From the IMG/VR virus record IMGVR_UViG_3300029951_000007: a DNA stretch of 64,000 nt; one strand, given 5' to 3'. Of this stretch, positions 10,552 through 64,000 are shown piece after piece (position 1 is the first letter of the stretch; the number at the start of each line of letters is the position of its first letter). The notes beneath the pieces were generated by a model. It was given only the letters and a program-made list of their open reading frames with translations, made no database searches and had not been told where the DNA came from. Position numbers and translations under genes: made by a program. The stretch is from a virus.

Positions 10552-10565
10552 GTCTGTGTTACTCC

Positions 10566-10796: not shown

Positions 10797-10879
10797 GTGG
10801 CCTGGTGGGTGGTCTGGCTAGTTACTGCGACATGCGTACAACGGGTGTTACAAATAGCTCACTGGCTGGACAACCAATT

Positions 10880-11898: not shown

Positions 11899-11914
11899 CT
11901 TCACTACGTACTCG

Positions 11915-12235
11915 TCAAGTGCTGGCATCTTTGTACCTCTCGAACCAAAAGATCACTGGCTGTCCCAGTGGGAGCCACTTCAGCGATGCTCGCCATGTTT
12001 CAATGTCCAAAGAACTTTTCGAATCGTTGCACTCTTTGCAGGCAGGAACGATGTTGTCCAGCGTGTGATTCTCAGGGTACTTGCACCCATGACGTCCGGA
12101 AAACGACCAGCGCACGTTACGGAAGCGCACAATCGGCTTGACGTGTTCGCGGCACCAATTACGCTTTAGCGGTTGGCCACAGTACGCGCACCTATTACCA
12201 AATTTGGCAGCTATCTTCTTCCTAGATACGATCAT
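11915..12235 (-). CDS. HNH endonuclease (terminase-associated)
   Basis: CAYCGQPL ... REHVKPIV ... NIVPACKECNDSK. It overlaps the TerL stop by 4 nt. Confidence 0.8.
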   Translation of the reverse strand: MIVSRKKIAAKFGNRCAYCGQPLKRNWCREHVKPIVRFRNVRWSFSGRHGCKYPENHTLDNIVPACKECNDSKSSLDIETWRASLKWLPLGQPVIFWFERYKDAST

Positions 12236-13521: not shown

Positions 13522-14206
13522 TCGGCCCAGCCTTTAGTGCTGCAAACAAACCTTCCAGCTGCTCGTTCTTTCCACCGCCGCCGAGGTCAGGCTGGCGTCC
13601 ATGCTTCTTGGGCTGTAGATGGCCCAATGTCCACTGTAACCCGGCGAATGCGAGCTTGGCTCTCTCGACGTTGTCGACGATGCGACTCTCTACTAGATCC
13701 TCAACGTCGCCGTCCCGAGTAACGACTTGCTTATGGGTGACGATGGAGTAGCTTGTAGGACGTTGAGTTATTGCCCTTGCGTCGTCTTCGAAAAGTGGTA
13801 CAAGAAACTCTTTCGCGCGCGCATGGATTTTCGAGAAGGAGTGTTCTTTATCTGCAAGCCACTTCACGAGTTGATACAGACTCGGGTTTCCTTCGATGGC
13901 TGCTAATTCACGTAACGTGCTGCCAGTAGCGATCAGCGCAAAGAGTTGCTCGCCGAGCTCGTCTGTCCATGGAAATTCTGGATTCGGTGGTCGACCAACC
14001 TTCCGCTCTGAAACTACTTGGTCCTGAATGGCGAGCTTTACTTCGGCAACAGATTCTTTGGCTTTACGTTGTGATTCTGCTTGCACAGCACGAAACACAG
14101 TCTTATTGGCTGCGGACTTCTCTGCTCGTGTGGGACGACCGTCGTGCGTTTTTGCCGGCACCTTAGCAGCAGGCGCGGTGGCCTTAGACTGCTTCTTAGA
14201 TGCCAT
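13514..14206 (-). CDS. terS: terminase small subunit (HTH)
   Basis: ATG at 14206 with a GGAG RBS. GRPPNPEFPWTDELGEQLFALIATGSTLRELAAIEGNPSLYQLVKWL is the classic TerS HTH pattern. The gene overlaps the TerL start. Confidence 0.65.
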   Translation of the reverse strand: MASKKQSKATAPAAKVPAKTHDGRPTRAEKSAANKTVFRAVQAESQRKAKESVAEVKLAIQDQVVSERKVGRPPNPEFPWTDELGEQLFALIATGSTLRELAAIEGNPSLYQLVKWLADKEHSFSKIHARAKEFLVPLFEDDARAITQRPTSYSIVTHKQVVTRDGDVEDLVESRIVDNVERAKLAFAGLQWTLGHLQPKKHGRQPDLGGGGKNEQLEGLFAALKAGPSE

Positions 14207-14685
14207 GCGGTTATATCTCCTGGGACTTAAAGCAAGGAAGGGCCGCGAACCACGTTGTGCGGTCAGCAGCCCCTCTGGACGTCCGTCTACTTGCACTCTT
14301 CTTCAGAGCAGGCAGCTATTAGGTGTTCTTACTGGTCAACTCGTACTACTTATCGAGTGACACCCTGGTCGCTGCTAACCACGCTCAATGTCGTGCGGCC
14401 TCCGTAGAGTGCCGCCGATGTAACTGTTTCCGTTATGGGTGCCAATGGCATGCTCACTCTAAAGTAAGCTGAACGGTCGTCGTTACTCACGAGAACTTTG
14501 CCGCACTCACTGCGGCTGCCCTATCCGGAGAGCGCGGAGGAAGGGTGCTCGATAACCCCGAGTCCAGGACATGCACACTCAAAGAGTGTCTCTCAACAGT
14601 TTGGTCAAAGAACGTGAGTACATCTATCTGGGTAACGTGGTGGTCCAGCCTAGATGGCTCGATTGCCCATAGCTTCTGAGCAATA
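14207..14685 (-). other. ORF-free hairpin-rich leader between tRNA-like element and terS (candidate pac region or ncRNA)
   Basis: About 480 nt with no credible ORF. Several short hairpins appear on the minus strand, for example GCCGCA-GTGAG-TGCGGC and ACACTC-TTT-GAGTGT. Confidence 0.3.
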
Positions 14686-14749
14686 TGGTCGGTGAAGAAG
14701 GATTTGAACCTCCGGCATCTAGCTCCCAAAGCTAGCGCGCCATTCACCG
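14686..14749 (-). tRNA. tRNA-Pro(UGG)-like element lacking a D-arm, CCA encoded
   Basis: The minus strand reads CGGTGAA-TGGCGCG-CTAGC-TTTGGGA-GCTAG-ATGCC-GGAGG-TTCAAAT-CCTTC-TTCACCG-A-CCA. It has a 7-bp acceptor stem, a 5-bp anticodon stem and a T-arm with GGTTCAAATCC. Only 7 nt occupy the position where the D-arm should be. Confidence 0.5.
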
Positions 14750-14836
14750 TAATCTTTAGGGCACTCGCGGGCTAACTGGTAATTTGCGCGGTTTTCATGT
14801 TCCGCCGTTCCCTGCCGCTAAACGCACCCTACATAT

Positions 14837-14842
14837 ATTATA
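14837..14842 (-). promoter_or_regulatory. TATAAT box (minus strand) upstream of tRNA-like element
   Basis: The minus strand reads AGCCTATAATATATG. It is followed by TGTAGGG..TTTAGCGG boxes similar to the 16.5-kb repeats. Confidence 0.35.
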
Positions 14843-14844
14843 GG

Positions 14845-15033
14845 CTAACTAGCTTGTTCCGACATCATGCTGCGGTAGGAGTACACCACCATCAACTCCT
14901 CGGCCGTGAGCTTCTCATCGAACAGCACGGTGCCTACCTTGCCGGCCCAACAAGCATGGACGTACTCTTCAAGCTTCTTCAAGCTCTCTATCAAATCCAT
15001 CGCCATACCTCGATCGCTAACCAAACCGCCCAT
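14845..15033 (-). CDS. hypothetical small protein (start uncertain)
   Basis: This is the 3' part of track ORF 14845..15243, whose 5' part overlaps the GIY-YIG gene. Candidate starts lie at 15033, 15006 and 15000. Confidence 0.3.
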   Translation of the reverse strand: MGGLVSDRGMAMDLIESLKKLEEYVHACWAGKVGTVLFDEKLTAEELMVVYSYRSMMSEQAS

Positions 15034-15097
15034 GCCGCCATCCACCACGCGGTGCACCCAACCACCAGCGCCGAACCCCACACTACAATGGACCGTA

Positions 15098-15826
15098 TCA
15101 CTTCGCAGCCAATTTCTTAGCTGCATTTGCGCGACGCGTTTCCCAAATCTTTGCGGATAAAGCTGCTCTGTCTTCTGCCGAACGTGCTGCCCAACCACGT
15201 TTAGAAGCTTCGGAACACTTAGCAACAAACTCTGGGCTTTCAAACTTGGACATCAAGAGTTCACGTTTTGTGGCCCACATAGACTTAGACTGTTTACTGA
15301 CTAAGCTACGTCTACGTGGTGATCGCACCTCTTCCAGATGCGCAGCTTTCTTTACGGGATCCTTAAACCGCTCTTTACATGCTGCGCTTACTGAGTCACG
15401 AAACTCTTTACTAGCGAAGAGTACGGTTTTCTTTGCTCGGTAGTCTGGATCTGCCCACACAGCTTTCTGTTTCTTAGAAAGAAGTTTTAATGATCTCTTT
15501 GAAAACTGCATTCCACCACAACCACCAGTGGTGAGATTGTAGCCGTGACCATTGTCGATGAACGTGTCAAGCTTCGCGATGTAAAATTCTTCTTTCTCAT
15601 TCAACAGCGAAACAGGCCCACGCCAAACAACTGATTTCTCAAACGCTTCCCACCCATACAAACGCATCGCATTATACAGCGGATGCTTTATCTTCTTCAC
15701 AAACGCAGCACATTTGTGCCCACGCCAACGAACGAGTTCATTTACTCGTTCATGCTGCCCTACGTAACCCTTACCATTTACAGTACAATGAAAGTAGTAT
15801 ATGAGACCTTGCTGTTCATTCTTCAT
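15098..15826 (-). CDS. GIY-YIG homing endonuclease (free-standing), paralog of 9258..10118
   Basis: GLIYYFHCTVNGKGYVGQ, RWRGH and YNLTTGGCGG are followed by a repeated DPxxR/K module. Confidence 0.8.
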   Translation of the reverse strand: MKNEQQGLIYYFHCTVNGKGYVGQHERVNELVRWRGHKCAAFVKKIKHPLYNAMRLYGWEAFEKSVVWRGPVSLLNEKEEFYIAKLDTFIDNGHGYNLTTGGCGGMQFSKRSLKLLSKKQKAVWADPDYRAKKTVLFASKEFRDSVSAACKERFKDPVKKAAHLEEVRSPRRRSLVSKQSKSMWATKRELLMSKFESPEFVAKCSEASKRGWAARSAEDRAALSAKIWETRRANAAKKLAAK

Positions 15827-15839
15827 ACGTACTCCTGCA

Positions 15840-16121
15840 CTATACAGTTCTTGGAAGTCCCCAAATTCTTAAACCATTTACAGGCTTGCCATTCCAATCA
15901 GAGCATGGCACAGGTTGCCAAACCGAACCGACGTTCACCGATACGATGTACGTACTGCATTCAACCGCCGTATTCATACCGCCCACTTGCCGATGCGTCT
16001 CTGCTTTGATCAACGTCTCAGCGTCACGTTTCGATATGTGCCGATGATGCTTACACGTTGGCCAGATACCGTAATGTTCCATACGTCCAGCTTCTTCTAA
16101 CGATAGCACGCAGTAATTCAA
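15840..16121 (-). CDS. hypothetical protein, first gene of leftward operon
   Basis: Track ORF adjacent to the divergent control region. Confidence 0.45.
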   Translation of the reverse strand: MNYCVLSLEEAGRMEHYGIWPTCKHHRHISKRDAETLIKAETHRQVGGMNTAVECSTYIVSVNVGSVWQPVPCSDWNGKPVNGLRIWGLPRTV

Positions 16122-16290
16122 GGGATAGCTACGCCTCAGGATGAACTCGGGCTGTTAGGACTCGGGGTATACCGCCCGGTCACGGTATCTAAGATCGAGC
16201 CGCCCTGGCTCCATCTAGACCACTCTCTAAGCAAACCACCCTACCCACTCTTCTATCCTTGTTGTTGATCTAATTCTAAACTAACCAGCG

Positions 16291-16626
16291 ACGTAGCGGG
16301 GAGCTAAAGTGACCGTCTGCTACCGCTACAATTGCGACGAATCATATCTAACGCAGAATGTGCCACTGGCTAACTATTTCTCCATTCCGCTGTAGACCGC
16401 TAACTTTGATGGTGGTAGATAACCCACGCAGAATGTGCCACTCGCTGGCTTGCTAACTATTTATTACTTATATTTAAACCAAGTAGAATAGGGTGAGTAT
16501 ATATATATGCCAACTAAGTACTATAGCAGGGAGTGAGAGCGAATTGTAGCGGAATTGTTAGCGGGACCTAACCACCAGCTTTAACAACTACATAGCGAAA
16601 AAGCCGCTAACTTCCAATTGTAGCGG
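16291..16626. promoter_or_regulatory. divergent control region with iteron/operator-like repeats and AT-rich core
   Basis: ACGCAGAATGTGCCACT occurs twice (16351-16367 and 16426-16442), each time followed by CTAACTATTT. AATTGTAGCGG-type boxes lie at 16542-16552, 16553-16564 and 16616-16626, and inverted at 16323-16334 and 16387-16395. CCGCTAAC occurs twice. An AT-rich block spans 16461-16527. Confidence 0.55.
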
Positions 16627-26949: not shown

Positions 26950-27337
26950 GGCGGCAGCGAAGGCGGCGTACGAGGTTTGGCATGGCATGGCATACCTGTC
27001 TAAGTGCCCTTGGAGTGAAAACAATGCTGAGTTTAAAGAACGGTGGTACGTGCGGGTTCGGGCCACGGTGCCGTTCCTGCAGCTGCCGTGGGAGGACATC
27101 ACGGAAGTAGAGCGGTCTAACTGGCTGAGCTACCTGCGTAGAAAGGCGGTGTACGATGTAGATTGGGAGGATCTTGGCAGGCTGCTGAACGGATTCATAA
27201 CCGACCGCAACAACAAGCTGCTGCCCAAGAAGCCAAACCCAGTGGTGCGGCAGATCGCGGAGCGGCTGGCAGGGCAGGTGCTGTCGGAGGACGCTGCCAA
27301 GACGCTGCACGAGCTCATCACTGCGAGGACGCGATGA
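26921..27337 (+). CDS. hypothetical protein
   Basis: ATG at 26921 with an AGGAGG RBS. Confidence 0.5.
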   Translation: MKQLTEEQIEAAAKAAYEVWHGMAYLSKCPWSENNAEFKERWYVRVRATVPFLQLPWEDITEVERSNWLSYLRRKAVYDVDWEDLGRLLNGFITDRNNKLLPKKPNPVVRQIAERLAGQVLSEDAAKTLHELITARTR

Positions 27338-27864
27338 GGCCGGCAAGGACGTGGCTGATCACGGACACGCACTTCAACCACGACATGCTGGTGCGCGAGG
27401 GTCATAGACCGGCCGACTTCCAGGAGCGGGTGATTGCCAATTGGCGCAAACTGGTAAGCCTTGAAGACCTTGTATTCCACCTTGGAGACGTCATACTGGG
27501 CAAGAACGGAACGTTGTTCAACATTTTGGTGCATCTGCCTGGCAAGAAGGTGCTTGTGCGAGGCAACCATGACCACGAGTCGAATGGCTGGTACATGCGG
27601 AACGGCTTCCAGTTCGTCGCGCAGGGCATCCTGCATGGCGGAGTCTGGCTGACGCACGCGCCGCAGGTCACGCTGCCCGACGGGGCGGTGCTGAACGTGC
27701 ACGGCCACCTGCACACGCTGGAACTCGAACTACCGAAGCATTGCAAGCTGTTGTCATTGGAGCGCGAGAACTACGCACCGGTCGAATTCAATTCGTTCGT
27801 GGGATTCAGTCCCATGACGCGCAAGCTGCTGGGAACCACGGACGAAGAAGGAGATACCGATTGA
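27334..27864 (+). CDS. calcineurin-like metallophosphoesterase
   Basis: ITDTHFNHD, HLGDV, VRGNHDHE and VHGHLH motifs. ATGA overlap. Confidence 0.7.
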   Translation: MRPARTWLITDTHFNHDMLVREGHRPADFQERVIANWRKLVSLEDLVFHLGDVILGKNGTLFNILVHLPGKKVLVRGNHDHESNGWYMRNGFQFVAQGILHGGVWLTHAPQVTLPDGAVLNVHGHLHTLELELPKHCKLLSLERENYAPVEFNSFVGFSPMTRKLLGTTDEEGDTD

Positions 27865-28877: not shown

Positions 28878-29021
28878 ATGAGAAACGAGCTGTATGAGCC
28901 GTACAAGATCGGCGCGGATTGGTACTTCGACTGCAGGGCCGGAAGGCGCGGACCGTTCGTGTCGGAGCAGCGTTGCGTAGAAGCGGCAGCGAGCAGGCAG
29001 GAAGCGGAGGAGATGGCGTGA
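28878..29021 (+). CDS. hypothetical 47-aa protein
   Basis: MRNELYEPYKIGADWYFDCRAGRRGPFVSEQ... with an AAGGAG RBS. Confidence 0.4.
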   Translation: MRNELYEPYKIGADWYFDCRAGRRGPFVSEQRCVEAAASRQEAEEMA

Positions 29022-29479
29022 CTATCCCAGAGTATTGCGCCGAGGAGGTGTGGCGACAGGGGCACAACCTCGGCGAACTGGACGGCGTGGAGCGCGTCGG
29101 CTGGATGCTGGACGCCTGGAGCTACATGATATACACCGGGCGGCACGCTAGGACGCTGCTGACGGAGGACGTCGTCGCGCTGGGCACACGCGTCGAGCGC
29201 TACAAGAACCGTCGCGGGCTGAGGACGTGCGAGGTGCGGGTGGGAAACTCCATTCCGCCGCGCGCCGTGGACGTTCCGAACCTGCTCGCGGACCTGCTGG
29301 CGCGGCAAGCGGAGCTCGCCCCGCTCGACTTCTACCGCCAGTTCGAGCTCATCCACCCGTTCGAGGACGGCAACGGGCGCGTGGGCAAGGTGCTGCTGAA
29401 CTGGAAGAACGGCACTTTGCTTAACGATCCCATATTCCCTCCGGGCGACTTCTGGGGGACGACGATCTTGAATCCGTAG
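29018..29479 (+). CDS. Fic/DOC-family protein
   Basis: HPFEDGNGRVGK matches the Fic core HxFx(D/E)GNGRxxR, with the last R replaced by K. GTG start in a GTGA overlap. Confidence 0.7.
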   Translation: MTIPEYCAEEVWRQGHNLGELDGVERVGWMLDAWSYMIYTGRHARTLLTEDVVALGTRVERYKNRRGLRTCEVRVGNSIPPRAVDVPNLLADLLARQAELAPLDFYRQFELIHPFEDGNGRVGKVLLNWKNGTLLNDPIFPPGDFWGTTILNP

Positions 29480-33225: not shown

Positions 33226-35514
33226 ATGACTGTAAAGACTAAGAAAGTGACGCAGACCGACCTGGACTTCACCGTGTTCAGTCGCGCGGTGGCCGCCCAG
33301 TTCCAGCGCATGAGCGCGCATCCGCTGTTCCGCGCATCAACCAGCAAGGACGATATGTGGGCCATATACCAGGCCGCTTGGCCGGAGGGCACCAACGAGA
33401 TCTTCCGCGAGCGGCGGGAGCATGATTGCCAGAAGTGCAAGCACTTCATCCGAGCGGTCGGCGGCGTCGTGGCCGTGATCGACGGCGAGCTTGTCAGTAT
33501 TTGGGACGCGGAGATGCCCGAGCCGTACGCCACGGTGGCTGCGGCCATGTCGCGCTACGTGGAATCTTGCGCCATCGACAACGTGTTCCTCACGTCGGAG
33601 CGCACGGCGGGGGTGGCGAAGAATTTTCAGCAGGTCATAACTGCCCTAGAGTTCCAAGACTCATTCGCGAAGGCTTCGGCTACACCGCTAAAGAGCGAAC
33701 GCGTGATCGAGTGGAACCACTTCAGCGTCGCCATCCCGGACCGCTTCGTCGTCTCGAAGAAGGACATCGGGCCGAAACTGGCCGACGCCCGCGCCACGCA
33801 CGACGTTCTGCTGCGCGGACTGCAGGAGCTCACGCTGGACTCGGTCGACACGGTGCTCGAGTTGATTGCGCAGAACTCGCTCTACCGTGGGGAGGAGTAT
33901 AAGCATTCGTTGCAGACGTTCCGGGCGTTGAAGGTGAAGTTCGACGCCGTGAGTCCTGCCATGCAGCTTTCTCTGAATAACCGAGCGGCAGCGGATGAAG
34001 TGCTGAACGAACGACGCGACCAGTTCGCGTGGCTCCACGCCCAGGCCGCGCACCCGACAGCGAGTCGGATTCGCAACACGGCCATTGGCACGCTGCTGAT
34101 CGACCTGTCGGCCGGGATCGAGCTCGAGGACGCCGTCAAGAAGTTCGAGACGTCCGTCATGGCCCCATCCAATTACAAGCGGCCCACGGCGCTGGTTTCC
34201 AAGGCCATGATCGAGAAGGCGCGCGTGAAAATCGACGAGCTGGGGCTGGCGTCGGCTTTGGAGCGTCGCTACGCCGTCATAGACGACATCACGGTGAACA
34301 ATATCCTGTTCGCCGACCGATCGGCCAAGGTGCTGAGGGGCCAGCGCGGCGGTGGTAAGACGGCCGAGAGCGCGTTCGCGGAACTGGCGGAGAAGATCCC
34401 CGAGGACGTCAAGAAGCTGGACCGCGTGGAGGAGATCGGCATCGAGAAGTTCCTCAAGGACGTGCTTCCGAAGGCGACCTCGCTGGAGGTTCTGTTTGAG
34501 AACAAGCACGCCGGGAACCTCGTCAGCCTTATCGCGCCAGTCGACCCCACGGCTAAGAACCTGTTCAAGTGGCCCAACAAGTTCTCCTGGTCGTACGCGG
34601 GGGACGTGGCGGACTCCATCAAGGAGCGCGTCAAGCGCGCCGGAGGAAGCGTAGTCGGCGACCTTTGCTGCCGGCTGGCCTGGGACTACACGGACGACCT
34701 GGATTTCCACATGATTGAGCCAGCTGGCGCGGGGCGTGGAAGAGGCGGTTTCGGCACCGGTAGCACGCATATCTTCTACGGCAACGTACGCAGGCCGTCT
34801 GCCAGCGGAGGCATTCTGGACCTGGACGCCAACGGTTGCGACGGCCTGAAGGCTGAACCAGCGGAGAACATCTTCTACGCCGACAAGGCCAACATGGCGG
34901 AGGGCGTGTACGAGCTGACGGTAAACAACTACTCGCGACGCTCGACCGGAAGTGGATTCGAGGCGCAGGTGGAGTTTGGCGGCGTCACGCACAACTTCGT
35001 CTACGAGAAGGCGCTGCGCACCGGAGAGACGGTAAGCGTAGCCAAGGTGAAGTACAGCCATGCGGCTGGGTTCGAGATTATCGAGTCGTTGCCGTCGACG
35101 CAAACCTCCAAGGAGGTTTGGGGTATGCAGACGCAGACCTTTCGCAAGGCGAACGTGGTCATGCTGTCGCCGAATTGGTGGGATGGCTACGCGCCTGGCA
35201 CCGCGACGTTCGAATCACTCGGAGACGTGGAAGCTGACGAGCGGGTGGCGAAGGCGTTCGGTATCGGCAACAAGCACTACTTCTTCATGCTGGAGGGCTG
35301 CGCCAACGAGGGCAAGGCTCGCGGCTACTACAATGAATTCTTGCGCGCGGACCTGGAACCGCACCGCAAGGTCATGGAGATGGTGGGGGCCAAGATGCGC
35401 ACGGACGAGGCCGCGCACCAGTTGTCTGGCTTAGGCTTCTCGTCTACACAGAGGGCTGAGCTAACCGTGCGGGTCGGCGGAACGTTCAGCCGTGTCGTAA
35501 AGGTGGTGTTCTAG
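33226..35514 (+). CDS. large (762 aa) conserved-looking protein of unknown function
   Basis: It is the longest ORF in the right arm other than the primase-helicase gene and has a good RBS. The central block reads DDLDFHMIEP...IFYGNVRRPSASGGILDLDANG...AENIFY. Confidence 0.7.
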   Translation: MTVKTKKVTQTDLDFTVFSRAVAAQFQRMSAHPLFRASTSKDDMWAIYQAAWPEGTNEIFRERREHDCQKCKHFIRAVGGVVAVIDGELVSIWDAEMPEPYATVAAAMSRYVESCAIDNVFLTSERTAGVAKNFQQVITALEFQDSFAKASATPLKSERVIEWNHFSVAIPDRFVVSKKDIGPKLADARATHDVLLRGLQELTLDSVDTVLELIAQNSLYRGEEYKHSLQTFRALKVKFDAVSPAMQLSLNNRAAADEVLNERRDQFAWLHAQAAHPTASRIRNTAIGTLLIDLSAGIELEDAVKKFETSVMAPSNYKRPTALVSKAMIEKARVKIDELGLASALERRYAVIDDITVNNILFADRSAKVLRGQRGGGKTAESAFAELAEKIPEDVKKLDRVEEIGIEKFLKDVLPKATSLEVLFENKHAGNLVSLIAPVDPTAKNLFKWPNKFSWSYAGDVADSIKERVKRAGGSVVGDLCCRLAWDYTDDLDFHMIEPAGAGRGRGGFGTGSTHIFYGNVRRPSASGGILDLDANGCDGLKAEPAENIFYADKANMAEGVYELTVNNYSRRSTGSGFEAQVEFGGVTHNFVYEKALRTGETVSVAKVKYSHAAGFEIIESLPSTQTSKEVWGMQTQTFRKANVVMLSPNWWDGYAPGTATFESLGDVEADERVAKAFGIGNKHYFFMLEGCANEGKARGYYNEFLRADLEPHRKVMEMVGAKMRTDEAAHQLSGLGFSSTQRAELTVRVGGTFSRVVKVVF

Positions 35515-44506: not shown

Positions 44507-44725
44507 ATGAGAGAACATTTCTGCGAAGACTGTCGAGACGAACGAATTCAGTTGAATCATCTGGTCGGTCAGCGAATCACAAAGGCGCAGGTCAACTGCG
44601 ATGGACCCGGTACCTACACGTTTGAATTTGAAGATGGTACCGTACTTAGCATTACGTCGTCAGGTAGCGATCTTACTACTACCGATGCAACGTTCACGAT
44701 ACCAAAACACACCAAGAAAATGTAG
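44507..44725 (+). CDS. hypothetical protein
   Basis: ATG at 44507 (MREHFCEDC...). Confidence 0.45.
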   Translation: MREHFCEDCRDERIQLNHLVGQRITKAQVNCDGPGTYTFEFEDGTVLSITSSGSDLTTTDATFTIPKHTKKM

Positions 44726-44738
44726 TGCAAGGAGCATT

Positions 44739-45650
44739 ATGGATTTCGCAACAATCGCAATGTACGTGGGACTGGGCGTTCTAGCCATCATAGTCCTGAG
44801 CATATTCTTCGGGTCGTTCTACACGGTGCCTACGCAGGAAGCGGCTGTAGTAGCGCGCTTCGGCAAGTTCAGTCACATCGCACGGCCAGGGCTCAACTTC
44901 AAGCGGCCATTCGTGGACTCTGTCGAGTTAGTTAGGCTGGCCACGTACCAGCTAGACGACACCATTGAGACGAAGACCAAGGACAACGTGTTCGTCACGC
45001 TGCCGGTGTCCTGCCAGTGGCAGGTGGGTAGTTCGGATCAAGCCATCCAGGACTATCATTACAAGCTAACCAACAACGAGCAGATCAGCTCCTACCTGTC
45101 CAACATCCTGTTGGGACACATTCCGGACATGGACCTGGACACACTCTTCACGTCGCAGCAGCAGGTATCGGACAAGGCGTCGGCAGAACTTGAACTACAG
45201 ATGTCCAAGTTCGGTGTCGAAATCACCAAAGTAATGATCACTGACATCCAACCGGACGCCGGAGTGGTCAAGGCCATGAACAGTATCAACGAGCAGACCC
45301 GGCTGGCCGTGGCTAATAAGGCACAAGGTGACGCGGAGTATATACTCAAGGTGCGGCAGGCTGAGGCTGATGCCGAGGTCAAGCGCCAAGAAGGTTTGGG
45401 CGTGGCTAACGAGCGTAAGGCCATCGCTGACGGGTGGGCTGACTCGATCGACAAGATAAAGGGCAGTACCGACCTGTCGGATAACGACGCTACGTTCCTG
45501 CTGCTGTTCACCAACTGGACCGACATGATGCAGAAGGTCGGCGGCTCTGACAACACCACCATGGTCTTTATGCCCTCTGGACCGGAGGGCTTGCAGAACT
45601 TCCAGGCGACGATGGCCAACGCGCAGTTGCATATGCTGGCGGCGAAGTGA
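44739..45650 (+). CDS. SPFH / band-7 (prohibitin-stomatin-HflK/C) family membrane protein
   Basis: An N-terminal TM segment (IAMYVGLGVLAIIVLSIFFG) is followed by YTVPTQEAAVVARFGKF...PGLNFKRPFVD and a coiled-coil AEAD region. Confidence 0.8.
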   Translation: MDFATIAMYVGLGVLAIIVLSIFFGSFYTVPTQEAAVVARFGKFSHIARPGLNFKRPFVDSVELVRLATYQLDDTIETKTKDNVFVTLPVSCQWQVGSSDQAIQDYHYKLTNNEQISSYLSNILLGHIPDMDLDTLFTSQQQVSDKASAELELQMSKFGVEITKVMITDIQPDAGVVKAMNSINEQTRLAVANKAQGDAEYILKVRQAEADAEVKRQEGLGVANERKAIADGWADSIDKIKGSTDLSDNDATFLLLFTNWTDMMQKVGGSDNTTMVFMPSGPEGLQNFQATMANAQLHMLAAK

Positions 45651-47402: not shown

Positions 47403-49382
47403 ATGCCACGTGCGCCGCAGGTGATTCTCGCAGATTTTGAAACGAAGGGTATTCAGTCGCGGCCAAAGTACCCACCGAAGCCGGGTTCGCTCGCTCTTAA
47501 GTGGCCCGATCAGTCAGATTACAAACTCATGGCATGGGGTCATGGGGATGGAACGCGTGCGTTCGACAACAATTGCACAGAGAAGGAAGCGCGCGGCGAG
47601 CTCAAGAAGGCACAGGAAAGCAAGTATCCAGTGCTTTGGCAGAACGAGAAATTCGATCTGGACGTCGCCGAAATACATTGGGAACTACCAATCCCGGATT
47701 GGCGGAAGCGTCACGATACTATGTATCTTCTCTTCCTCGAGAACCCTCATGCTCCGTCTCTAGCGTTGAAGGAATCGGCCCAGCGCATACTAGGGATTGC
47801 GCCTGAGGAGCAGGACAAGCTGAAGGAGTGGATCCTAGCCAACATCGAGGCGGCGCGTAAGAAGCCCAGCACATGGGGTGCGTATATCTGCGAAGCGCCT
47901 TATCGAATTGTCAAGCCCTACCACAAAGGCGATCTCACGCGCATGGGTCGGTTGTTCAATAAGATCTACCCGTATATCGTCGAGTCCGGAATGCTGGAAG
48001 CGTATCAACGTGAATTGAAGCTCATGCCAATACTGCTGGAGAACGAGCGGGTGGGGATGCGCGTGGACATGAATGGCCTAGAGCGTGACTTGCCGGCGAT
48101 GATAGCTGGCGTAGAGAAGACCGATGTCTGGCTGCGCAAGAAGCTGGGTATTGAGAACATCGACAGTGATCGGCAGCTTGGCGAGGCGCTTTACAATAAA
48201 GGAATCGTAAGCGACTTTAAGAAGACAGCCAAGGGCCATCTGTCGGTGAGTAAGAAGACACTTACGTTGAATAAGTTCAAAGACCCGAAGGTGTATCAAG
48301 CCCTGCAGTATCGCGGTCAGATGAGTACGTCCATCTCGATGTTTATCAAGCCTTGGTTGGAACTTGGTACAGCCGGCAAGGGTACCATTCACCCTAACTG
48401 GTCGCAGGTGCGCAGTCCGAAGGGTAACAACGATACAGGAGGAGCGCGCAGCGGTCGCATCATTTGCTCAAAGCCTAACTTCTTAAATATTCCGAAGAAA
48501 TGGAAGCGCGCAGCTTCTGCCGGTTACGTCCATCCAGCATTCTTGAAGGTTCCAGAATTGCCGTACGTACGTAGTTACTGCTTACCGGATAAGGGTCAGC
48601 GGTGGGGCAAAAGGGATTTCGATCAACAAGAATTGAGATTGTTCGGCCACTTTGAAGAAGGACCCGTTATGGCAGGTTTCTTATCTGCCCAAATAGATTT
48701 GCCATGCTCTAAGTGCGGCGCACCTGTAGGTAAACAATGCGTTGGTGGCAAATTTCACGCAGAACGCAAATACGACATCCATGAACTGGTGCGTGCAGAA
48801 GTAGAACGGCGTTTGATTGAAGCGTGTTTACGCGAAGGATTCGACCGTGACACTGCCAAGAGTTGCGTGTTCGGTCGTCTGTATGGCCAGGGTATAACCG
48901 GCCTGATGCAGCTTCTACAGCTACTAGATGAAGAGAAGCCTATTGCGCAGATCATCCAGGCTTCTATCAACGCGGCTGTGCCATCGATCAAGGAACTGGA
49001 CAATCGTTTGAAGGCGCTCTCGGATGAAGGCTTGCCGATTCGCACGTTTGGGTCACGTCTGTACTATTGTGAAGAGCCGAAGTACAGTCCTCTGTATGGC
49101 AGAGACATGACATTTTCATATAAACTTCTCAACTACCTCATGCAAGGTAGCGGAGCTGATGTAACGAAAGAAACATTGATACGTTATAACGAAGCCAAGA
49201 AGAATAGCAGATTCGTCGTCACTGTGTATGACGAAGTTAATTTCAGTGCACCTGCTAAAGCAATGAAAGAAGAACAGAAAATAATGCAAGATTGTATGCG
49301 TAGTATCGCCACCGACGTTCCCATGTTGTCGGAAGGCGAATCTGGTGTTAATTGGGGGACTTTGACAAAATGGCAGGATTAA
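47403..49382 (+). CDS. family A DNA polymerase with 3'-5' exonuclease domain
   Basis: ADFETKG (Exo I), DFDQQELRL (motif A), RDTAKSCVFGRLYGQG (motif B) and VTVYDEVNF (motif C). Confidence 0.9.
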   Translation: MPRAPQVILADFETKGIQSRPKYPPKPGSLALKWPDQSDYKLMAWGHGDGTRAFDNNCTEKEARGELKKAQESKYPVLWQNEKFDLDVAEIHWELPIPDWRKRHDTMYLLFLENPHAPSLALKESAQRILGIAPEEQDKLKEWILANIEAARKKPSTWGAYICEAPYRIVKPYHKGDLTRMGRLFNKIYPYIVESGMLEAYQRELKLMPILLENERVGMRVDMNGLERDLPAMIAGVEKTDVWLRKKLGIENIDSDRQLGEALYNKGIVSDFKKTAKGHLSVSKKTLTLNKFKDPKVYQALQYRGQMSTSISMFIKPWLELGTAGKGTIHPNWSQVRSPKGNNDTGGARSGRIICSKPNFLNIPKKWKRAASAGYVHPAFLKVPELPYVRSYCLPDKGQRWGKRDFDQQELRLFGHFEEGPVMAGFLSAQIDLPCSKCGAPVGKQCVGGKFHAERKYDIHELVRAEVERRLIEACLREGFDRDTAKSCVFGRLYGQGITGLMQLLQLLDEEKPIAQIIQASINAAVPSIKELDNRLKALSDEGLPIRTFGSRLYYCEEPKYSPLYGRDMTFSYKLLNYLMQGSGADVTKETLIRYNEAKKNSRFVVTVYDEVNFSAPAKAMKEEQKIMQDCMRSIATDVPMLSEGESGVNWGTLTKWQD

Positions 49383-59635: not shown

Positions 59636-59667
59636 GAGACGCCCAGAACATCGGGCGTCTTTGTATT
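59636..59667 (+). terminator. rho-independent terminator
   Basis: Stem AGACGCCC/GGGCGTCT (8 bp, 8-nt loop) followed by TTGTATTT. Confidence 0.55.
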
Positions 59668-59689: not shown

Positions 59690-60613
59690 TTGCCACGTAA
59701 GAGGAGAACGATCCTGAAAAACCTAACACTCATCATCCCCACGCACGGTCGTGTTAACAAGCAGATAACGCTCCAGGCGCTGCCGACTGCGCTCCAGGCC
59801 GAGGTCATCCTCGTGGCTTCGTTGCCTGACGAAGCCAAGGCGCTGAAGAAGCTGTACCCGGCTAACCAAGTGCTTACAGCCAAGGGCACTACATCCATCG
59901 CTACGAAGCGTCACTGGATTATGAAGAACGTAGCCGGCAAGTTTCTATTTATGATGGACGACGACCTGGCGTTCTTCGAGCGCTGCCCGGCTAAGTGGCG
60001 CGTGTGGGAGGAGCATCGCAAGGCGTACGCCGTAGCTCCGGACGCACCGGCTGGAACCTCGCTGATGATGCGTCGCTATCCTAAGGACAAGGTCCTCTTG
60101 AAGCTATTCCAGGAGATGGATTCCTACGCTGGTAAAGAGCACGACCTCGGTATGATCGGCATCGCGCATCGGCGTCACTCTGACAAGAAGAAAGCGGCGT
60201 GGGAGAAGAACGCAAGGATGATGTATGCTTTCGGTGTCAACCGAGAGCTCTATCTCAAAGAGAAGATTCGCTTCGACGCCATAGGTCTGCGCGAGGACTT
60301 CCACGTGGTGTTGTCCATGTTGCGTAAAGGCCATGAGTGCCACAACTACGTCGAGCTACTCAACAACGAGTACGGCACATTCGGCGCGGCGGGAGGGTGC
60401 AGCGGCGAGCGCAGTATGGAGTACAGCGACGCCCAGTGCTTCGAGTTGGCCAAGCTACACCCCGGCTTCGTGAAGGTGGTGGACCGCGCGTACACCACGA
60501 CGGCTGTGCGTAAGGAGGTCGTGGTAGCCTGGAAGAAGGCTTACCTCTCCTCTCTGGCTCAGCCCAAGGTTCCAAGCGTACGGAAGGCAGCAAAGAAAGC
60601 GGTGACGGCATGA
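59690..60613 (+). CDS. GT-A fold (GT2-like) glycosyl/phospho-group transferase
   Basis: LTLIIPTHGR is a typical GT-A N-terminal strand and FLFMMDDDLAFF a DxD motif. The start codon is uncertain: the track uses the TTG at 59690, and a GAGGAGA RBS precedes a CTG at ~59715. Confidence 0.6.
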   Translation: MPRKRRTILKNLTLIIPTHGRVNKQITLQALPTALQAEVILVASLPDEAKALKKLYPANQVLTAKGTTSIATKRHWIMKNVAGKFLFMMDDDLAFFERCPAKWRVWEEHRKAYAVAPDAPAGTSLMMRRYPKDKVLLKLFQEMDSYAGKEHDLGMIGIAHRRHSDKKKAAWEKNARMMYAFGVNRELYLKEKIRFDAIGLREDFHVVLSMLRKGHECHNYVELLNNEYGTFGAAGGCSGERSMEYSDAQCFELAKLHPGFVKVVDRAYTTTAVRKEVVVAWKKAYLSSLAQPKVPSVRKAAKKAVTA

Positions 60614-60777
60614 AGTGCGAAAATTGCAAGAAGAAGTGTGCGAATCGGTTCTGTAACCTTGGCTGCTTCAACCGGTGGGTGCGGCGTGGTAATCGCAAAC
60701 TGGTGGAGGACGCGCACAAGAGCGGCACGGAGGATTACCGCGTCGTCGTACGGAAGATGATGGGAGGCACGGCGTGA
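60610..60777 (+). CDS. 55-aa zinc-ribbon protein
   Basis: Own translation MKCENCKKKCANRFCNLGCFNRWVRRG.... An ATGA overlap lies upstream and a GTGA overlap downstream. Confidence 0.4.
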   Translation: MKCENCKKKCANRFCNLGCFNRWVRRGNRKLVEDAHKSGTEDYRVVVRKMMGGTA

Positions 60778-61511
60778 TCATTCACCACAAGATTCAGCGC
60801 AACAGCGGAGCAGCCCTAGAGCCGTGTATCTATAAGAGTGGCCATGGTGTGCCGACGCAAGGCGCTAAGATGCGCGCCTATCCGGACGTATTTGTGCCGG
60901 TGCTAGGTATAACGACTGGCGGCTACGTCATGCCGGTAATGGGCGAACCATCGCCGGTACTGGACCTGCCGTTGGCGCTGGCCCGGTTGGCTGCTTTATG
61001 GGACCTGCCGGTGGCGCATGTCTACGATTATGAGGGCCGCCGTCGCCACCACGTAGTCCAAGTAGAGCCGTTCACTCGCACAGAAGGCTTTCCGCCTATT
61101 ATCCGGTCGGCGCTGACGACGTGGTACGAACGAATTGGTAGTACGCAAAGCAAAGGAGCACAGGTCGTACATGGTGATCCCACCCTGGAGAACTACGTAC
61201 GCGACGGTTATTGGCTAGACCCTAGTACGCGTCCATTGCCACAAGAGGCCGAGCTTGACGGCGGCAAGCTGCTGCAGTCGTACTTCCACTACGGTCGCCC
61301 TTGCCTGGAGTCGGAACGTTACATGATACGTAAGTTCTTGGTCGAGCAAAAATTGAACCTGGACCTCTGTATCTACTACATGCTGACGCACATCATTCGG
61401 CTGTATGGTGTGCAGCCGCAGGCGCGTGTATGGGCCATTGACGTCGTATCGGGCCTGCGTAATTTGGCGGAAGAACTTCGCACGGAAATGAGAGTGGATG
61501 CATGCAAGTAG
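60774..61511 (+). CDS. protein-kinase-like fold small-molecule kinase (APH / choline-kinase-like)
   Basis: VVHGDPTLENYV is the catalytic-loop HGDxxxxN and YWLDPS the metal-binding D. Confidence 0.6.
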   Translation: MIIHHKIQRNSGAALEPCIYKSGHGVPTQGAKMRAYPDVFVPVLGITTGGYVMPVMGEPSPVLDLPLALARLAALWDLPVAHVYDYEGRRRHHVVQVEPFTRTEGFPPIIRSALTTWYERIGSTQSKGAQVVHGDPTLENYVRDGYWLDPSTRPLPQEAELDGGKLLQSYFHYGRPCLESERYMIRKFLVEQKLNLDLCIYYMLTHIIRLYGVQPQARVWAIDVVSGLRNLAEELRTEMRVDACK

Positions 61512-62221
61512 TTATTCTGGCGGCAGGACGCGGTGAACGATTTGTCAGTAACGGGGTAATGACGCCTAAACCGCTGCTCCCAGCGCGCGGTCGCACGATG
61601 ATACAGCATGCGCTGGTCCAGGCGTCTGAAATCATCAAGACGCCTGTCGTTGTGTGCTTGGTGGATTTGTACAGTGAGCTTCACAAGCAAACGCCGAAGA
61701 ACATGCATCCGATCCGCGTGCCCATTCGGTTCGTGCAGAAGGGTGCGGCCATGTCTTTGTTGGCGGCGTCAGGTGTGATTCGCGATACCGATCCGGTGCT
61801 GGTCATGGACTGTGACACCATCTTCAAGAGTGGTGTGCTTGCTAAGTTCTCTGAGTTTAGTGAGGCTTGCTTCAAGTCTGGCGTGCAGTCTTCTATGCTG
61901 TGCTTCCGTCCTAAGGATGACAGCGAGCGCTACAGTTTCGTTATCATGAAGGATCACTTAGTGACGCAGGTGGTGGAGAAGCAGCGCATAAGCGGTATTG
62001 CTTCTTGCGGCGTTCATGCATTCCAGTCGTGGGAGCTTGCCAAGCGCGCCATCTACGAGATGGTGATTCTCAGTACGATGACTAACGGTGAGTACTATCT
62101 GGCACCGTGCCACAACAATTTGCAGTTGACCACGGCCATGGTGATCGCAGCCGATGAATTCAACCACGTAGGCACACCGGCTGAACTGGAGGCGTATGAG
62201 CAAGCAGTTCCCAAGGCTTGA
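61502..62221 (+). CDS. sugar-/alcohol-phosphate nucleotidyltransferase
   Basis: MQVVILAAGRGERF (LAAGxGxR), PKPLLP and an LVMDCD acidic motif. Size and pattern resemble the RmlA/GlmU-N/LicC class. Confidence 0.75.
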   Translation: MQVVILAAGRGERFVSNGVMTPKPLLPARGRTMIQHALVQASEIIKTPVVVCLVDLYSELHKQTPKNMHPIRVPIRFVQKGAAMSLLAASGVIRDTDPVLVMDCDTIFKSGVLAKFSEFSEACFKSGVQSSMLCFRPKDDSERYSFVIMKDHLVTQVVEKQRISGIASCGVHAFQSWELAKRAIYEMVILSTMTNGEYYLAPCHNNLQLTTAMVIAADEFNHVGTPAELEAYEQAVPKA

Positions 62222-63068
62222 AGAGTTCGTGTACTTCGTGAACGAGCGTTGGTCCATACATCAGAAGCGATTGGCTGGGAAGCCTGCTCCGTGGACGAAG
62301 GATCCTATCCTGTTGGAATACCGCTTTACCAACGTACGTCGCGAAGACGACAGGGTCACTAAGTGTATACACGAAAACTGGTTACAGCCGCACGCGGAGG
62401 ACTACGACACGGTAGTCTTCGCAATGGCGCTGGCACGGTTGGTGAACTTGCCGGCGAGCCTGGAAGCGCTCGGTTATCCATCAAAATGGAATCCGAAGCG
62501 GTTTGTGAAGCTGATGGAGGCGCGCAAGAAGGACGGCATGGCGACGTTCACAGGGGCATACATGATAAACGCCGTCGGTGCTACCAAAGGACAGTCCAAG
62601 GCGTCGTACTTGGCCGACCAGGTGCTTGGGCCGTTGTGGAACAGCCGTAAGCTGCTAGGTAACTTGGTGCGTACCGGGTGTGAGCTTAGTACGTTGCAAG
62701 AAGCGCTCATGTTACATCACGGCTTCGGAGGTGGGTTCATGAGTGCGCAGGTCGTGGCGGATATTAAGCACCTGCCTTCTATGAAGAAGGCTGAAGACTG
62801 GATGACGTTCGCAATGTCAGGGCCAGGAAGTCGTAGAGGGTTAAACTGGCTCGTGGGAAGAGAACCAACTGCGCGCTGGAACGAAGAGGAATGGCATGCT
62901 ACGCTGCTGGATTTGATGAAGGTAGCTCAGCCAAAGTTGAAATGCCCAGTGTTGGATGCGCAGAATCTACAGAACTGTCTGTGTGAATTCAGCAAATACT
63001 GCAAGGTGAAGTACAACGGCGGCAGAGCGAAGCAGAAGTTCCGCGCCAGCGGCGAAGCTTATAATTAA
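62196..63068 (+). CDS. aGPT-Pplase-like / 5-hmdU-DNA-kinase-associated helical domain protein (DNA base hypermodification family)
   Basis: NERWSIHQKRLAGKPAPWTKDPILLEYRFTNVRREDDRVT matches my memory of the PWT.DPIL..YRF.NV.RE.D..T signature of that family. The protein looks all-alpha and is 290 aa. Confidence 0.55.
   Translation: MSKQFPRLEEFVYFVNERWSIHQKRLAGKPAPWTKDPILLEYRFTNVRREDDRVTKCIHENWLQPHAEDYDTVVFAMALARLVNLPASLEALGYPSKWNPKRFVKLMEARKKDGMATFTGAYMINAVGATKGQSKASYLADQVLGPLWNSRKLLGNLVRTGCELSTLQEALMLHHGFGGGFMSAQVVADIKHLPSMKKAEDWMTFAMSGPGSRRGLNWLVGREPTARWNEEEWHATLLDLMKVAQPKLKCPVLDAQNLQNCLCEFSKYCKVKYNGGRAKQKFRASGEAYN
63060..63065 (+). promoter_or_regulatory. TATAAT box, recurrent motif
   Basis: AAGCTTATAATTAACCC overlaps the stop of 62196..63068, 28 nt before the ATG at 63094. 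Confidence 0.4.
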
Positions 63069-63093
63069 CCCATAGCAGCGAAAGGAAGTGAAG

Positions 63094-64000
63094 ATGTACA
63101 GTTACAAAGCTAGAGACGTAAATGAGGCGCTTTCACTTGGACTACAGCATTTGTTACACAGTGGAATCAAAGAGGACTCCAGAGTAGGTCCAGTGCTAGT
63201 AGCGCCAGGGCCGGTGTGTATCGAGTATACCGACCCAAGGCAGCGAGTGCTGTATTCACCAACGCGCGATGCGAACCACGTATTCCATGTGATGGAGGCG
63301 TTGTGGTTTTTCTCGGGGAGCAACGAACTGGAGTTTCCGGTTTTCTTTAATGCCTCATACTCGCAGTTTTCAGATGATGGCAAGACTATGTGGGACTCTT
63401 ACGGATGGCGCTGGCGAGAATTCTTCGGCTATGACCAGCTCGATGCCATAGTGGAGGAGCTCAAGTCGAATCCGGGAAGCAGGCGCTGCGTATTGGCGAT
63501 GTGGAACGCTGATATTGCGCCAAGCGCCCCGCAATGGGAGGCGAAAAGTGGCGTACAGTACAGCGATGATCTTGGCGTTGCGTGCAACGGTGGTAAAGCC
63601 GTTCCGTGCAACACGCACGCTTACTTCGCCATACGAGCCGGCAAGCTGAACATGACCGTCATGAACCGCAGCAACGACAGTATGTGGGGCGCATTCGGCG
63701 CGAACGCGGTCCACTTCAGCTTCCTGTTGGAGTACATGGCGATGCGTATCGGTGTGCCGATGGGCAGTTACTATCAGTTCACGAACAATCTGCATACGTA
63801 TACCGACAAGTTCAGTATTGACAAGCTGAACGCCATTGAATACGAGTGCGTTACGCTCGATCAGTTGGAACCTCTTGGACCCTCTATCACAGAAGGATTC
63901 GACGACGACCTGAAGCTGTTCATGCCGTGGGCGCTGAAGGTGATACGTGCCACCCCACCGCCGGCAACGTTCCCGTCAGACGTATTACCAGAAGCTACGC
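63094..64000 (+). CDS. divergent thymidylate-synthase (ThyA)-fold enzyme, candidate dUMP hydroxymethylase (3' end beyond window)
   Basis: Own translation from the ATG at 63094 stays open to the window end. GSRRCVLAMWN, VPCNTHAYFAIRAGKLNMTVMNRSND, GANAVHFSFLLEYMA and NNLHTY align with ThyA SRRIIVSAWN, PCHAFFQFYV..GKLSCQLYQRSCD, PFNIASYALL and GDTHLY. Confidence 0.75.
   Translation, partial: MYSYKARDVNEALSLGLQHLLHSGIKEDSRVGPVLVAPGPVCIEYTDPRQRVLYSPTRDANHVFHVMEALWFFSGSNELEFPVFFNASYSQFSDDGKTMWDSYGWRWREFFGYDQLDAIVEELKSNPGSRRCVLAMWNADIAPSAPQWEAKSGVQYSDDLGVACNGGKAVPCNTHAYFAIRAGKLNMTVMNRSNDSMWGAFGANAVHFSFLLEYMAMRIGVPMGSYYQFTNNLHTYTDKFSIDKLNAIEYECVTLDQLEPLGPSITEGFDDDLKLFMPWALKVIRATPPPATFPSDVLPEAT

Follow-up and report, generated by a model that had tools for sequence, protein, structure and literature searches.

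A clade 1 HMUDK_hel protein heading a 5-hydroxymethyldeoxyuridine gene core beside a predicted glycosylation cassette in an uncultured peat phage

Background

The IMG/VR virus record IMGVR_UViG_3300029951_000007 holds a stretch of 64,000 nucleotides (hereafter the window), close to the end of which lies a gene for an all-helical protein of the HMUDK_hel family. The locus raises the question of what such a protein does in a phage where the P-loop kinase that accompanies it in several known phages was not found. We conclude that the HMUDK_hel gene is the first gene of a conserved core for 5-hydroxymethyldeoxyuridine (5-hmdU), consisting of HMUDK_hel, a dUMP hydroxymethylase, an HD 5'-deoxynucleotidase and a DUF3310 protein, and that the glycosyltransferase (GT), kinase and nucleotidyltransferase (NTase) genes beside it form a separate, interchangeable glycosylation cassette; such cassettes lie just upstream of HMUDK_hel in this phage and in most related loci. 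From these observed gene identities and the chemistry inferred from them, we consider it somewhat better than an even chance that thymidine (T) is replaced by 5-hmdU and then O-glycosylated with a nucleoside diphosphate (NDP) sugar made by the phage, HMUDK_hel being a Cys enzyme that acts on 5-hmdU whichever cassette is present.

The confidence differs between the layers of this reading. We are highly confident of the gene identities and of the core-plus-cassette architecture, moderately so of a glycosylated 5-hydroxymethyluracil (hmU) product, and have little confidence in any exact reaction assigned to HMUDK_hel. The phage is uncultured, has a genome of roughly 100 kb, comes from peat and carries myovirus-like structural genes. 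Its sequence is present in at least 24 peat metagenome runs; no RNA sequencing runs were found among the runs listed as holding the locus.

Identification of the HMUDK_hel protein

The gene under study is the following:
62196..63068, + strand: HMUDK_hel protein of aGPT-Pplase clade 1, 290 aa, ATG start, identified by Pfam, PHROG, an AlphaFold2 (AF2) model and invariant residues

A preliminary description of this DNA had reported an all-alpha protein of 290 aa with a distinctive N-terminal block, and both points were reproduced. The open reading frame (ORF) was exact, the block WSIHQKRLAGKPAPWTKDPILLEYRFTNVRREDDRVT corresponded to residues 19-55, and the AF2 model (predicted local distance difference test, pLDDT, 92.6; predicted TM score, pTM, 0.90) contained 13 helices and no strands. 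The identical 290-aa protein is recorded on 48 public contigs of up to ~102 kb, and independent public contigs carry it as a called gene. On one JGI contig of 97,373 bp the gene has the coordinates that it has in the window, which therefore corresponds to the first 64 kb of that contig. The same description had assigned the N-terminal signature to the aGPT-Pplase/HMUDK helical superfamily, and a search with the aGPT-Pplase and HMUDK_hel hidden Markov models (HMMs) gave a significant, full-length hit. HMUDK_hel (PF18723) was the single Pfam match, with 142.7 bits against a cut-off of 25 (E = 1.9e-41) over profile positions 4-276 of 281. PHROG 2396, to which no function is assigned, matched as well (E = 2.2e-53), and 933 homologues were found at E ≤ 1e-10. 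In the Pfam search the protein gave no match to ADDT (PF18724) or aGPT-Pplase3 at E ≤ 0.1, and a sequence search of the PDB returned nothing at E ≤ 10. As a control, the M6 gp51-type protein matched ADDT at 1.7e-46 and the M6 gp55 type matched HMUDK_hel at 8.1e-56.

The protein thus belongs to clade 1, like M6 gp55, ViI gp160, phiW-14 gp72, phiRSL1 ORF231 and the C-terminal domain of SP10 gp186. Amino acid identity was 33% to M6 ORF055, 29% to the PaMx11 homologue, 28% to phiW-14 gp72 and 26% to the SP10-type protein. Structural matches to the model in BFVD included phiRSL1 ORF231 (TM score relative to the query, TMq, 0.88), phiW-14 gp72 (0.78) and the 637-aa kinase of SP10 (0.79).

Residue conservation was determined with 77 locus sequences from four contexts: beside a GT of the TAGT family, beside a P-loop kinase, beside only a thymidylate synthase (TS) homologue, and orphan. 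Fifteen residues were invariant in all 77 sequences (R18, D36, R49, D52, R81, N84, Y122, F181, D189, G209, G211, G215, C263, E264 and K267), and R18, R49, D52, R81, Y122, F181, D189, G209, P210, G211, C263, E264 and K267 are shared with the M6 gp55-type, phiRSL1 and SP10-type members. About 15 residues, including a Cys-Glu-x-x-Lys motif, stay invariant down to ~27% identity. On inspection of the sequence, the conserved GPGSRRG segment resembles a helix-hairpin-helix (HhH) hairpin. The candidate active-site residues were identical beside TAGT, beside a P-loop kinase, beside neither, and in loci without any hydroxymethylase. That the same residues are kept in every context argues for an enzyme doing the same reaction everywhere, and it contradicts the earlier suggestion that the acceptor chemistry may differ here owing to the GT-A and NTase neighbours.

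The gene cluster around HMUDK_hel

HMUDK_hel lies in a compact cluster on the + strand, whose other features are given below:
59636..59661, + strand: terminator-like hairpin with a 9-bp stem, 6 G-C pairs and a T-rich tail, from a consensus scan only
59690..60613, + strand: TAGT-family GT-A glycosyltransferase (Pfam TAGT, PF20691, 55.3 bits against a cut-off of 27.5, E = 1.1e-14; phrog_842, E = 2.6e-43)
60610..60777, + strand: Cys-rich ORF of 55 aa (CxxC...C...C...C), called on public contigs and overlapping each neighbour by 4 nt
60774..61511, + strand: kinase of the APH/choline-kinase fold, 245 aa (AF2, Foldseek and motifs)
61502..62221, + strand: sugar-1-phosphate nucleotidyltransferase, 239 aa, like the GlmU N-terminal domain and MurU, with a 10-nt overlap with the kinase gene
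63088..64000, + strand, cut by the window end: dUMP hydroxymethylase of the thymidylate synthase family, 363 aa on the full contig (Pfam Thymidylat_synt, 3.3e-18)

From position 59690 on, consecutive genes overlap by 4, 4, 10 and 26 nt, and a gap of 19 nt then precedes the TS homologue. The hairpin, just ahead of the first gene, probably separates the cluster from the transcription unit before it. Searched against cultured phages, the cluster DNA gave just one matching stretch, of 96 nt.

The GT carries a DxD motif (DDD within FLFMMDDDL). Its start is uncertain: a TTG at 59690 gives 307 aa and the public gene call at 59813 gives 266 aa. We favour the long form, since the Pfam match starts as early as residue 14 of its 307 aa; the shorter public version probably lacks part of the first beta-strand of the GT-A fold. 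No family match was obtained for the 55-aa Cys-rich ORF in profile searches; its Cys pattern would possibly form a zinc ribbon. A 270-aa homologue of the kinase (P0135) bears a Cys-rich N-terminal extension in place of a separate small ORF, a hint that the kinase and the small protein act together. The NTase matched Pfam NTP_transf_3 (6.8e-14) and NTP_transferase (2.7e-10), together with NCBIfam Arch_glmU (1.7e-18) and MurU (1.9e-9), the NCBIfam scores being below the equivalog cut-offs.

The TS homologue has its catalytic Cys in a PCN motif and, in the segment RSND...GANAV, the equivalents of Asp169 and Asn177 when aligned to TS and MilA. An Asn at ThyA position 177 indicates specificity for uracil, and an Asp at 169 indicates that an enzyme is not a 5-hydroxy-dCMP synthase (PMC13326640). 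The protein is 38% identical to the M6-type enzyme (E = 4e-73) and shares its motifs. We therefore predict from these residues that it is a dUMP hydroxymethylase, forming a hydroxymethyl rather than a methyl product; dCMP hydroxymethylase and 5-hydroxy-dCMP synthase were considered for it and were ruled out by the Asn177 and Asp169 equivalents. Past the window end come genes for an HD YfbR-like 5'-deoxynucleotidase and a DUF3310 protein; beyond these, the opposite strand carries lysis and tail genes. The DUF3310 domain has been linked to the nucleotide kinase activity of T7 gp1.7 (PMC9339283). Hydroxymethylase, deoxynucleotidase and DUF3310 protein are genes for replacing or modifying T by way of 5-hmdU, and the view of this phage as one that modifies thymidine accordingly stands.

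A conserved core and interchangeable cassettes in related loci

We compared 85 related loci, made up of 80 IMG/VR loci and contigs of close relatives, in which ORFs were classified with iterated HMMs. Of the 85 loci, 67 had the TS homologue downstream of HMUDK_hel, 55 had DUF3310 and 50 had HD; for the most part these genes came directly after HMUDK_hel, in the order just given. A TAGT homologue stood beside HMUDK_hel in 22 of the 85, in diverse phages.

Cassette statistics were restricted to viral loci in which HMUDK_hel is flanked by 4 kb or more on each side, 50 in all. Among these, 17 had the P-loop kinase (nine of them also ADDT), 13 had TAGT and none had both (Fisher p = 0.002); the TS homologue without either cassette occurred in eight, and 12 had none of the modelled families. 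A P-loop kinase in only 17 of 50 is thus not universal to the HMUDK_hel family. In one relative (L004), whose HMUDK_hel is 53% identical, a GATase-ADDT, a P-loop kinase and an acetyltransferase occupy the slot of TAGT, kinase and NTase. The kinase and the NTase of the window type occurred solely together and solely with TAGT, in five loci; 17 of the 22 TAGT-bearing loci were without a detectable kinase or NTase of these two families.

In some loci that have HMUDK_hel and the TS homologue and neither kinase nor GT (L046:8998-9996, L082:6094-7014 and similar ones), a conserved protein of 310-380 aa without family assignment was encoded directly upstream of HMUDK_hel, sometimes with a radical SAM/SPASM enzyme; such loci may represent another cassette for hmU decoration. 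Orphan loci (L030, L039, L070 and others) had HMUDK_hel without a TS homologue within 10 kb, on contigs of 223-463 kb, and could be jumbo phages or cellular contexts. In one orphan locus HMUDK_hel adjoins an inosine-uridine nucleoside hydrolase.

A kinase is present, a P-loop kinase was not found

The preliminary description had noted the lack of a P-loop kinase partner in the window. We searched all six frames of the window, unfiltered, with family HMMs for the P-loop 5-HMUDK (built from 33 sequences) and ADDT (from 12). The best E value was 0.18, in agreement with that observation. The search was extended to 10 kb downstream, taken from fuller public contigs, and to the called genes of ~8 kb beyond the window start, a structural region for which precomputed Pfam hits were used. 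No P-loop kinase or ADDT was found in either. The only Walker A motif on the coding strand of the window (GQRGGGKT) belongs to a 762-aa protein (33226-35514, + strand) with no Pfam or NCBIfam match; it was considered as a 5-hmdU DNA kinase and set aside, as it did not match the 5-HMUDK HMM.

A kinase of another kind, missed in the preliminary description, is encoded two genes upstream of HMUDK_hel (60774-61511). The AF2 model of this 245-aa protein (pLDDT 91.8) has a bilobal, protein-kinase-like fold with an HxDxxxxN catalytic loop and a downstream metal-binding Asp. Among the top 50 PDB matches listed by Foldseek, almost all were choline or ethanolamine kinases, APH, macrolide or fructosamine kinases, or LicA, with E values down to 2.5e-4 and TMq of 0.44-0.63. 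The motifs read HGDPTxEN...DPS, and H133, G134, D135, N140 and D149 were invariant in 16 homologues. No match was obtained in Pfam (including APH and Choline_kinase), NCBIfam or by sequence in the PDB, a profile of the 16 sequences searched against the PDB gave only chance matches, and tblastn against cultured phages gave nothing. Because sequence profiles are silent, the call rests on fold and motifs; the protein is probably a sugar (anomeric) kinase. A kinase that is visible by structure only also means that a Pfam search by itself is not enough to declare such clusters free of kinases.

Comparison with known systems

In the M6-type phage AN14 the gene order is ADDT (gp51 type), a pyridoxal phosphate (PLP) enzyme, a radical SAM enzyme, the P-loop 5-hmdU DNA kinase (PF18748), HMUDK_hel ("clade 1"), Nmad5, the TS homologue and an HD phosphohydrolase. 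M6 gp55, ViI gp160, phiW-14 gp72 and the PaMx11 homologue resemble the window protein in being full-length HMUDK_hel proteins with the same invariant residues, encoded ahead of hydroxymethylase and HD; their identity to it is 28-34%. Unlike the window phage, in which neither was found, these phages encode a P-loop 5-hmdU DNA kinase and a clade 2 transferase. We know of no function shown for any clade 1 member. In the SP10-type protein (636-637 aa), encoded upstream of a thyA homologue, a P-loop 5-HMUDK domain (35-193) is fused to HMUDK_hel (312-597; Pfam 4.4e-45), and this fusion is the reason for the Pfam name. The SP10-type domain keeps the same invariant residues, whereas HMUDK_hel of the window stands alone and a P-loop kinase of that family was not found with it.

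The closest cultured analogue is the Ralstonia jumbo phage phiRSL1. Its ORF230-238 (L086, 165261-171498), all in one direction, encode an adenosine phosphosulfate (APS) kinase, a TAGT-like GT, a 476-aa APH-domain protein, an NTase, two TAGT-like GTs, a sulfotransferase, HMUDK_hel and a TS homologue. Compared with the window, the GT is 37% identical, the NTase (ORF235) is 30% identical (E = 8e-23), and HMUDK_hel matches at the TMq of 0.88 given above. GT, kinase and NTase genes precede HMUDK_hel and TS in both phages. phiRSL1 differs in its number of GTs (three) and in the additional sulfotransferase and APS kinase, and its APH protein bears a second NTase-like region. We considered whether phiRSL1 ORF236 is a fusion of homologues of the window kinase and NTase; BLASTP showed no similarity, and its APH domain is of independent sequence. 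By analogy, the recurrence of an APH-type kinase and an NTase with TAGT, HMUDK_hel and TS in the unrelated phiRSL1 supports a role of the two in sugar activation. The sulfotransferase and APS kinase suggest a sulfated glycan on the DNA of phiRSL1; the papers found do not describe its DNA modification.

The same pairing is known outside phages. In AmgK/MurU, NahK/GlmU and LicA/LicC, as in the window, a small-molecule kinase of the APH fold is followed by an NTase of the NTP_transferase family, with overlapping genes. The window pair differs in that its kinase has no sequence match to these and its context is DNA modification, not cell-wall metabolism. The base J pathway (JBP1/2 hydroxylase and JGT) shares with the window the GT family, TAGT, and the predicted type of product, an O-glycosylated 5-hydroxymethyluracil. 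In base J synthesis hmU is made on the DNA by a TET/JBP dioxygenase, whereas in the window phage it would be made before replication through the TS homologue, with a sugar donor that is probably phage-made. A published survey recorded GT-A contigs adjoining ThyS, sometimes with an "APH phosphotransferase", which were not characterised there, and our literature searches gave no description of glycosyl-hmU phage DNA.

Relationship to the amino-acid:DNA transferases

According to the preliminary description, the family transfers nucleophiles onto pyrophosphorylated 5-hmdU. This was not supported for the protein studied here, which matches HMUDK_hel only: group transfer has been shown only for clade 2 (M6 gp51, ViI gp247 and PaMx11 gp46), and on the monophosphorylated 5-PmdU (PMC8989533, PMC11472151). 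When M6 was reconstituted without the clade 1 protein gp55 the product was not lost, and the ViI enzymes to which the same paper gives a function do not include the clade 1 protein gp160 (PMC8989533).

The amino-acid:DNA transferases (AADT, Pplase2, Pfam ADDT: M6 gp51, ViI gp247, PaMx11 gp46/8Z2N, and YuA and 15599 Pplase2) have a helical, HhH-containing fold related to that of HMUDK_hel, and in a statistically weak profile alignment their conserved Asp and catalytic Cys are collinear with an Asp and a Cys of HMUDK_hel. They are unlike HMUDK_hel in that the latter has no ADDT match, has Gln/Asn for Glu/Thr, and has Glu after the Cys. As systems they differ as well, in that no P-loop kinase forming 5-PmdU was found at the window locus and no transfer activity is known for clade 1.

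The top PDB match of the HMUDK_hel model in Foldseek was PaMx11 gp46 (8Z2N; TM 0.43-0.47, probability 0.72) and the second was an HhH 8-oxoguanine glycosylase, and ADDT-domain proteins in BFVD matched the model at TM 0.50-0.58 (probability 1.0). An hhalign comparison with an alignment of 11 ADDT sequences was weak (E = 0.095) and collinear over 201 columns; in it the invariant Asp of ADDT fell opposite D189, and the catalytic Cys247 of PaMx11 gp46 opposite C263. Against a single gp51-type sequence hhalign was not significant.

In clade 2, Cys247 of PaMx11 gp46 attacks C6, and a single flipped-out nucleotide is held in a pocket (PMC11472151); an active-site metal is coordinated by Glu-Thr, four and three residues ahead of the Cys (PMC13458397). 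By analogy we infer that HMUDK_hel would also flip out a 5-substituted uracil and attack its C6. The metal ligands Glu and Thr correspond to Gln259 and Asn260 in the window protein, Gln-Asn being found in nearly all HMUDK_hel members, and the residue after the Cys is Glu in HMUDK_hel and Lys in ADDT. Because the metal ligands are missing, HMUDK_hel would not handle a leaving group as clade 2 does. A dithiol (CxC) reduction mechanism was rejected for HMUDK_hel, since C261 is not conserved throughout and the M6 type has Thr in its place.

Proposed pathway and alternative explanations

In the pathway that we propose, dUMP would be hydroxymethylated, the resulting 5-hmdUMP phosphorylated and dTMP removed, so that 5-hmdU would be polymerised instead of T. 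The kinase and NTase would convert a free sugar to the sugar-1-phosphate and then to the NDP-sugar, from which the TAGT enzyme would move the sugar onto the hydroxymethyl group of 5-hmdU in DNA, giving a base-J-like O-glycosyl-hmU. HMUDK_hel, probably a remote homologue of the amino-acid:DNA transferases, would not be the cassette transferase and would not require a P-loop kinase. Most likely it flips 5-hmdU out of the duplex, Cys263 attacking C6 and Glu264 serving as general acid. Its step would be common to all these phages, and the leading candidate for it is the disposal of undecorated 5-hmdU, for example by conversion to thymine.

Several points weigh against this pathway. The product is assigned from gene content. 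The TAGT enzymes characterised in phages act on 5-hydroxymethylcytosine (5hmC), and action on hmU rests on the trypanosome member of the family and on the Asn177-type hydroxymethylase. The negative searches for P-loop kinase and ADDT span the window and ~17 kb of flank in a genome of roughly 100 kb. As the best fold matches of the kinase are choline kinases, a LicA/LicC-like phospho-alcohol pathway is also possible. Homology between HMUDK_hel and ADDT is statistically weak in sequence (the hhalign E value given above) and moderate in structure. Finally, the monophosphate formed in vitro by SP10 gp186 was the same for the full-length protein as for its kinase domain alone (PMC8989533), so that an activity of the helical domain has never been observed.

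Within this pathway, a more specific proposal is that HMUDK_hel is a polymer-level enzyme that turns leftover 5-hmdU in DNA into thymine, or that forms an exocyclic-methylene intermediate from hmU; we regard it as tentative and, taken by itself, rather doubtful. SP10, phiW-14, M6 and ViI replicate with 5-hmdU for T and then convert it to a hypermodified base or to thymine (PMC8989533), and the enzyme for the thymine branch is not named in the literature covered. A clade 1 protein is present in all four. SP8 and SPO1 are described as hmU phages (PMC8989533), and SPO1, which was in the collection searched, was not among the six matching Bacillus records. The clade 2 intermediate yields thymidine when hydride is supplied as borohydride. 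The proposal rests on this distribution, on the Cys aligned with the catalytic one of the transferases and on the thymidine formed from the clade 2 intermediate. If it is true, this glycosylating phage without a P-loop kinase would carry a mixture of glycosyl-hmU and T, and the enzyme would be shown able to work without that kinase.

Other roles for HMUDK_hel were weighed against the same data. It might be a non-catalytic reader or adaptor that flips 5-hmdU and presents it to the enzyme encoded by a neighbour, the kinase in SP10 and M6 and the GT here. The fusion to the P-loop kinase in SP10-type phages, the P-loop kinase or TAGT gene adjoining HMUDK_hel in many loci, the Pfam name as helical domain of a kinase, and the lack of any HMUDK_hel activity seen in vitro are all consistent with such a role. 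We nevertheless consider it unlikely, since the ~15 invariant residues, with a Cys-Glu-x-x-Lys motif aligned with the catalytic Cys of the transferases, favour catalysis over binding alone, and M6 gp54 and the SP10 kinase domain function without HMUDK_hel. To our knowledge the base-J glucosyltransferase of trypanosomes likewise needs no HMUDK_hel-like partner. A little less probable still is a group-transfer role, adapted from the preliminary description, in which the APH-fold kinase would replace the P-loop 5-HMUDK on 5-hmdU in DNA, the NTase may make an NDP leaving group, and HMUDK_hel would displace it with a nucleophile. The kinase does lie two genes upstream, HMUDK_hel resembles proven transferases in its fold and has a Cys aligned with their catalytic one, and NTases of this family act on phosphate-bearing acceptors. 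A pyrophosphorylated hmU intermediate was also described in earlier biochemistry (cited in PMC8989533). Against group transfer, the invariant residues are unchanged in loci without any kinase, the metal-coordinating Glu and Thr of clade 2 are missing (PMC13458397), the M6 reconstitution worked without clade 1, no clade 1 protein figures among the ViI enzymes with a listed function, and most TAGT loci (17 of 22) show no kinase or NTase of these families. In phiRSL1, moreover, kinase and NTase stand amid several GTs and a sulfotransferase, as is typical of glycan building.

The very tight synteny with three nucleotide-pool enzymes would fit a protein that binds or processes 5-hmdUMP or dUMP together with hydroxymethylase, HD nucleotidase and DUF3310, as would the orphan HMUDK_hel beside a nucleoside hydrolase and the single flipped-out nucleotide bound in the pocket of the homologous transferases (PMC11472151). 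We judge such an action on the nucleotide pool improbable: the closest structural relatives act on DNA, an HhH DNA glycosylase being the second PDB match, the fusion partner in SP10 is a DNA kinase, and the GPGSRRG segment resembles an HhH hairpin. Lastly, GT, kinase and NTase might have nothing to do with DNA, serving for example host envelope glycans or virion proteins, and stand beside the hmU genes by accident. This appears very improbable, because the GT is specifically of the TAGT family, TAGT accompanies HMUDK_hel in 22 loci of diverse phages and excludes the P-loop kinase cassette, and the genes overlap by 4-26 nt or sit 19 nt apart behind a terminator-like hairpin.

If the pathway of hmU synthesis followed by glycosylation is correct, it would be a phage route to a base-J-like nucleotide unlike that of trypanosomes, with a TS homologue in place of a dioxygenase and a self-made sugar donor; phiRSL1, being a cultured phage, offers direct access to the question of glycosyl-hmU. 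The link of the clade 1 protein to the conserved 5-hmdU core, and not to one decoration chemistry, narrows the possible role of the family. It also makes an old question testable, namely which enzyme turns hmU in DNA to thymine in SP10 and phiW-14.

Other features of the window

A strand switch and a change in the sign of the GC skew were observed near 16-17 kb. To the left (1-16500, - strand) lie structural genes, including portal and Mu F-like genes, and to the right (17000-64000, + strand) those for replication and modification. Early promoters or an origin could lie between the diverging genes at ~16.1-17.1 kb. The 818-aa portal protein (3428-5884, - strand) has an extra precomputed Pfam hit to InPase (PF18823) besides Phage_portal_3. 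A family A DNA polymerase (47403-49382, + strand) contains, within its polymerase domain, a putative zinc-finger insertion matching Phage_zn_bind_8 at residues 433-460; Pfam reported no 3'-5' exonuclease domain for it. Early genes on the + strand encode a calcineurin-like metallophosphoesterase (27163-27864), a Fic/DOC-family protein (28919-29479) and an SPFH/Band 7 protein (44601-45650), which may have functions in host takeover or anti-defence.

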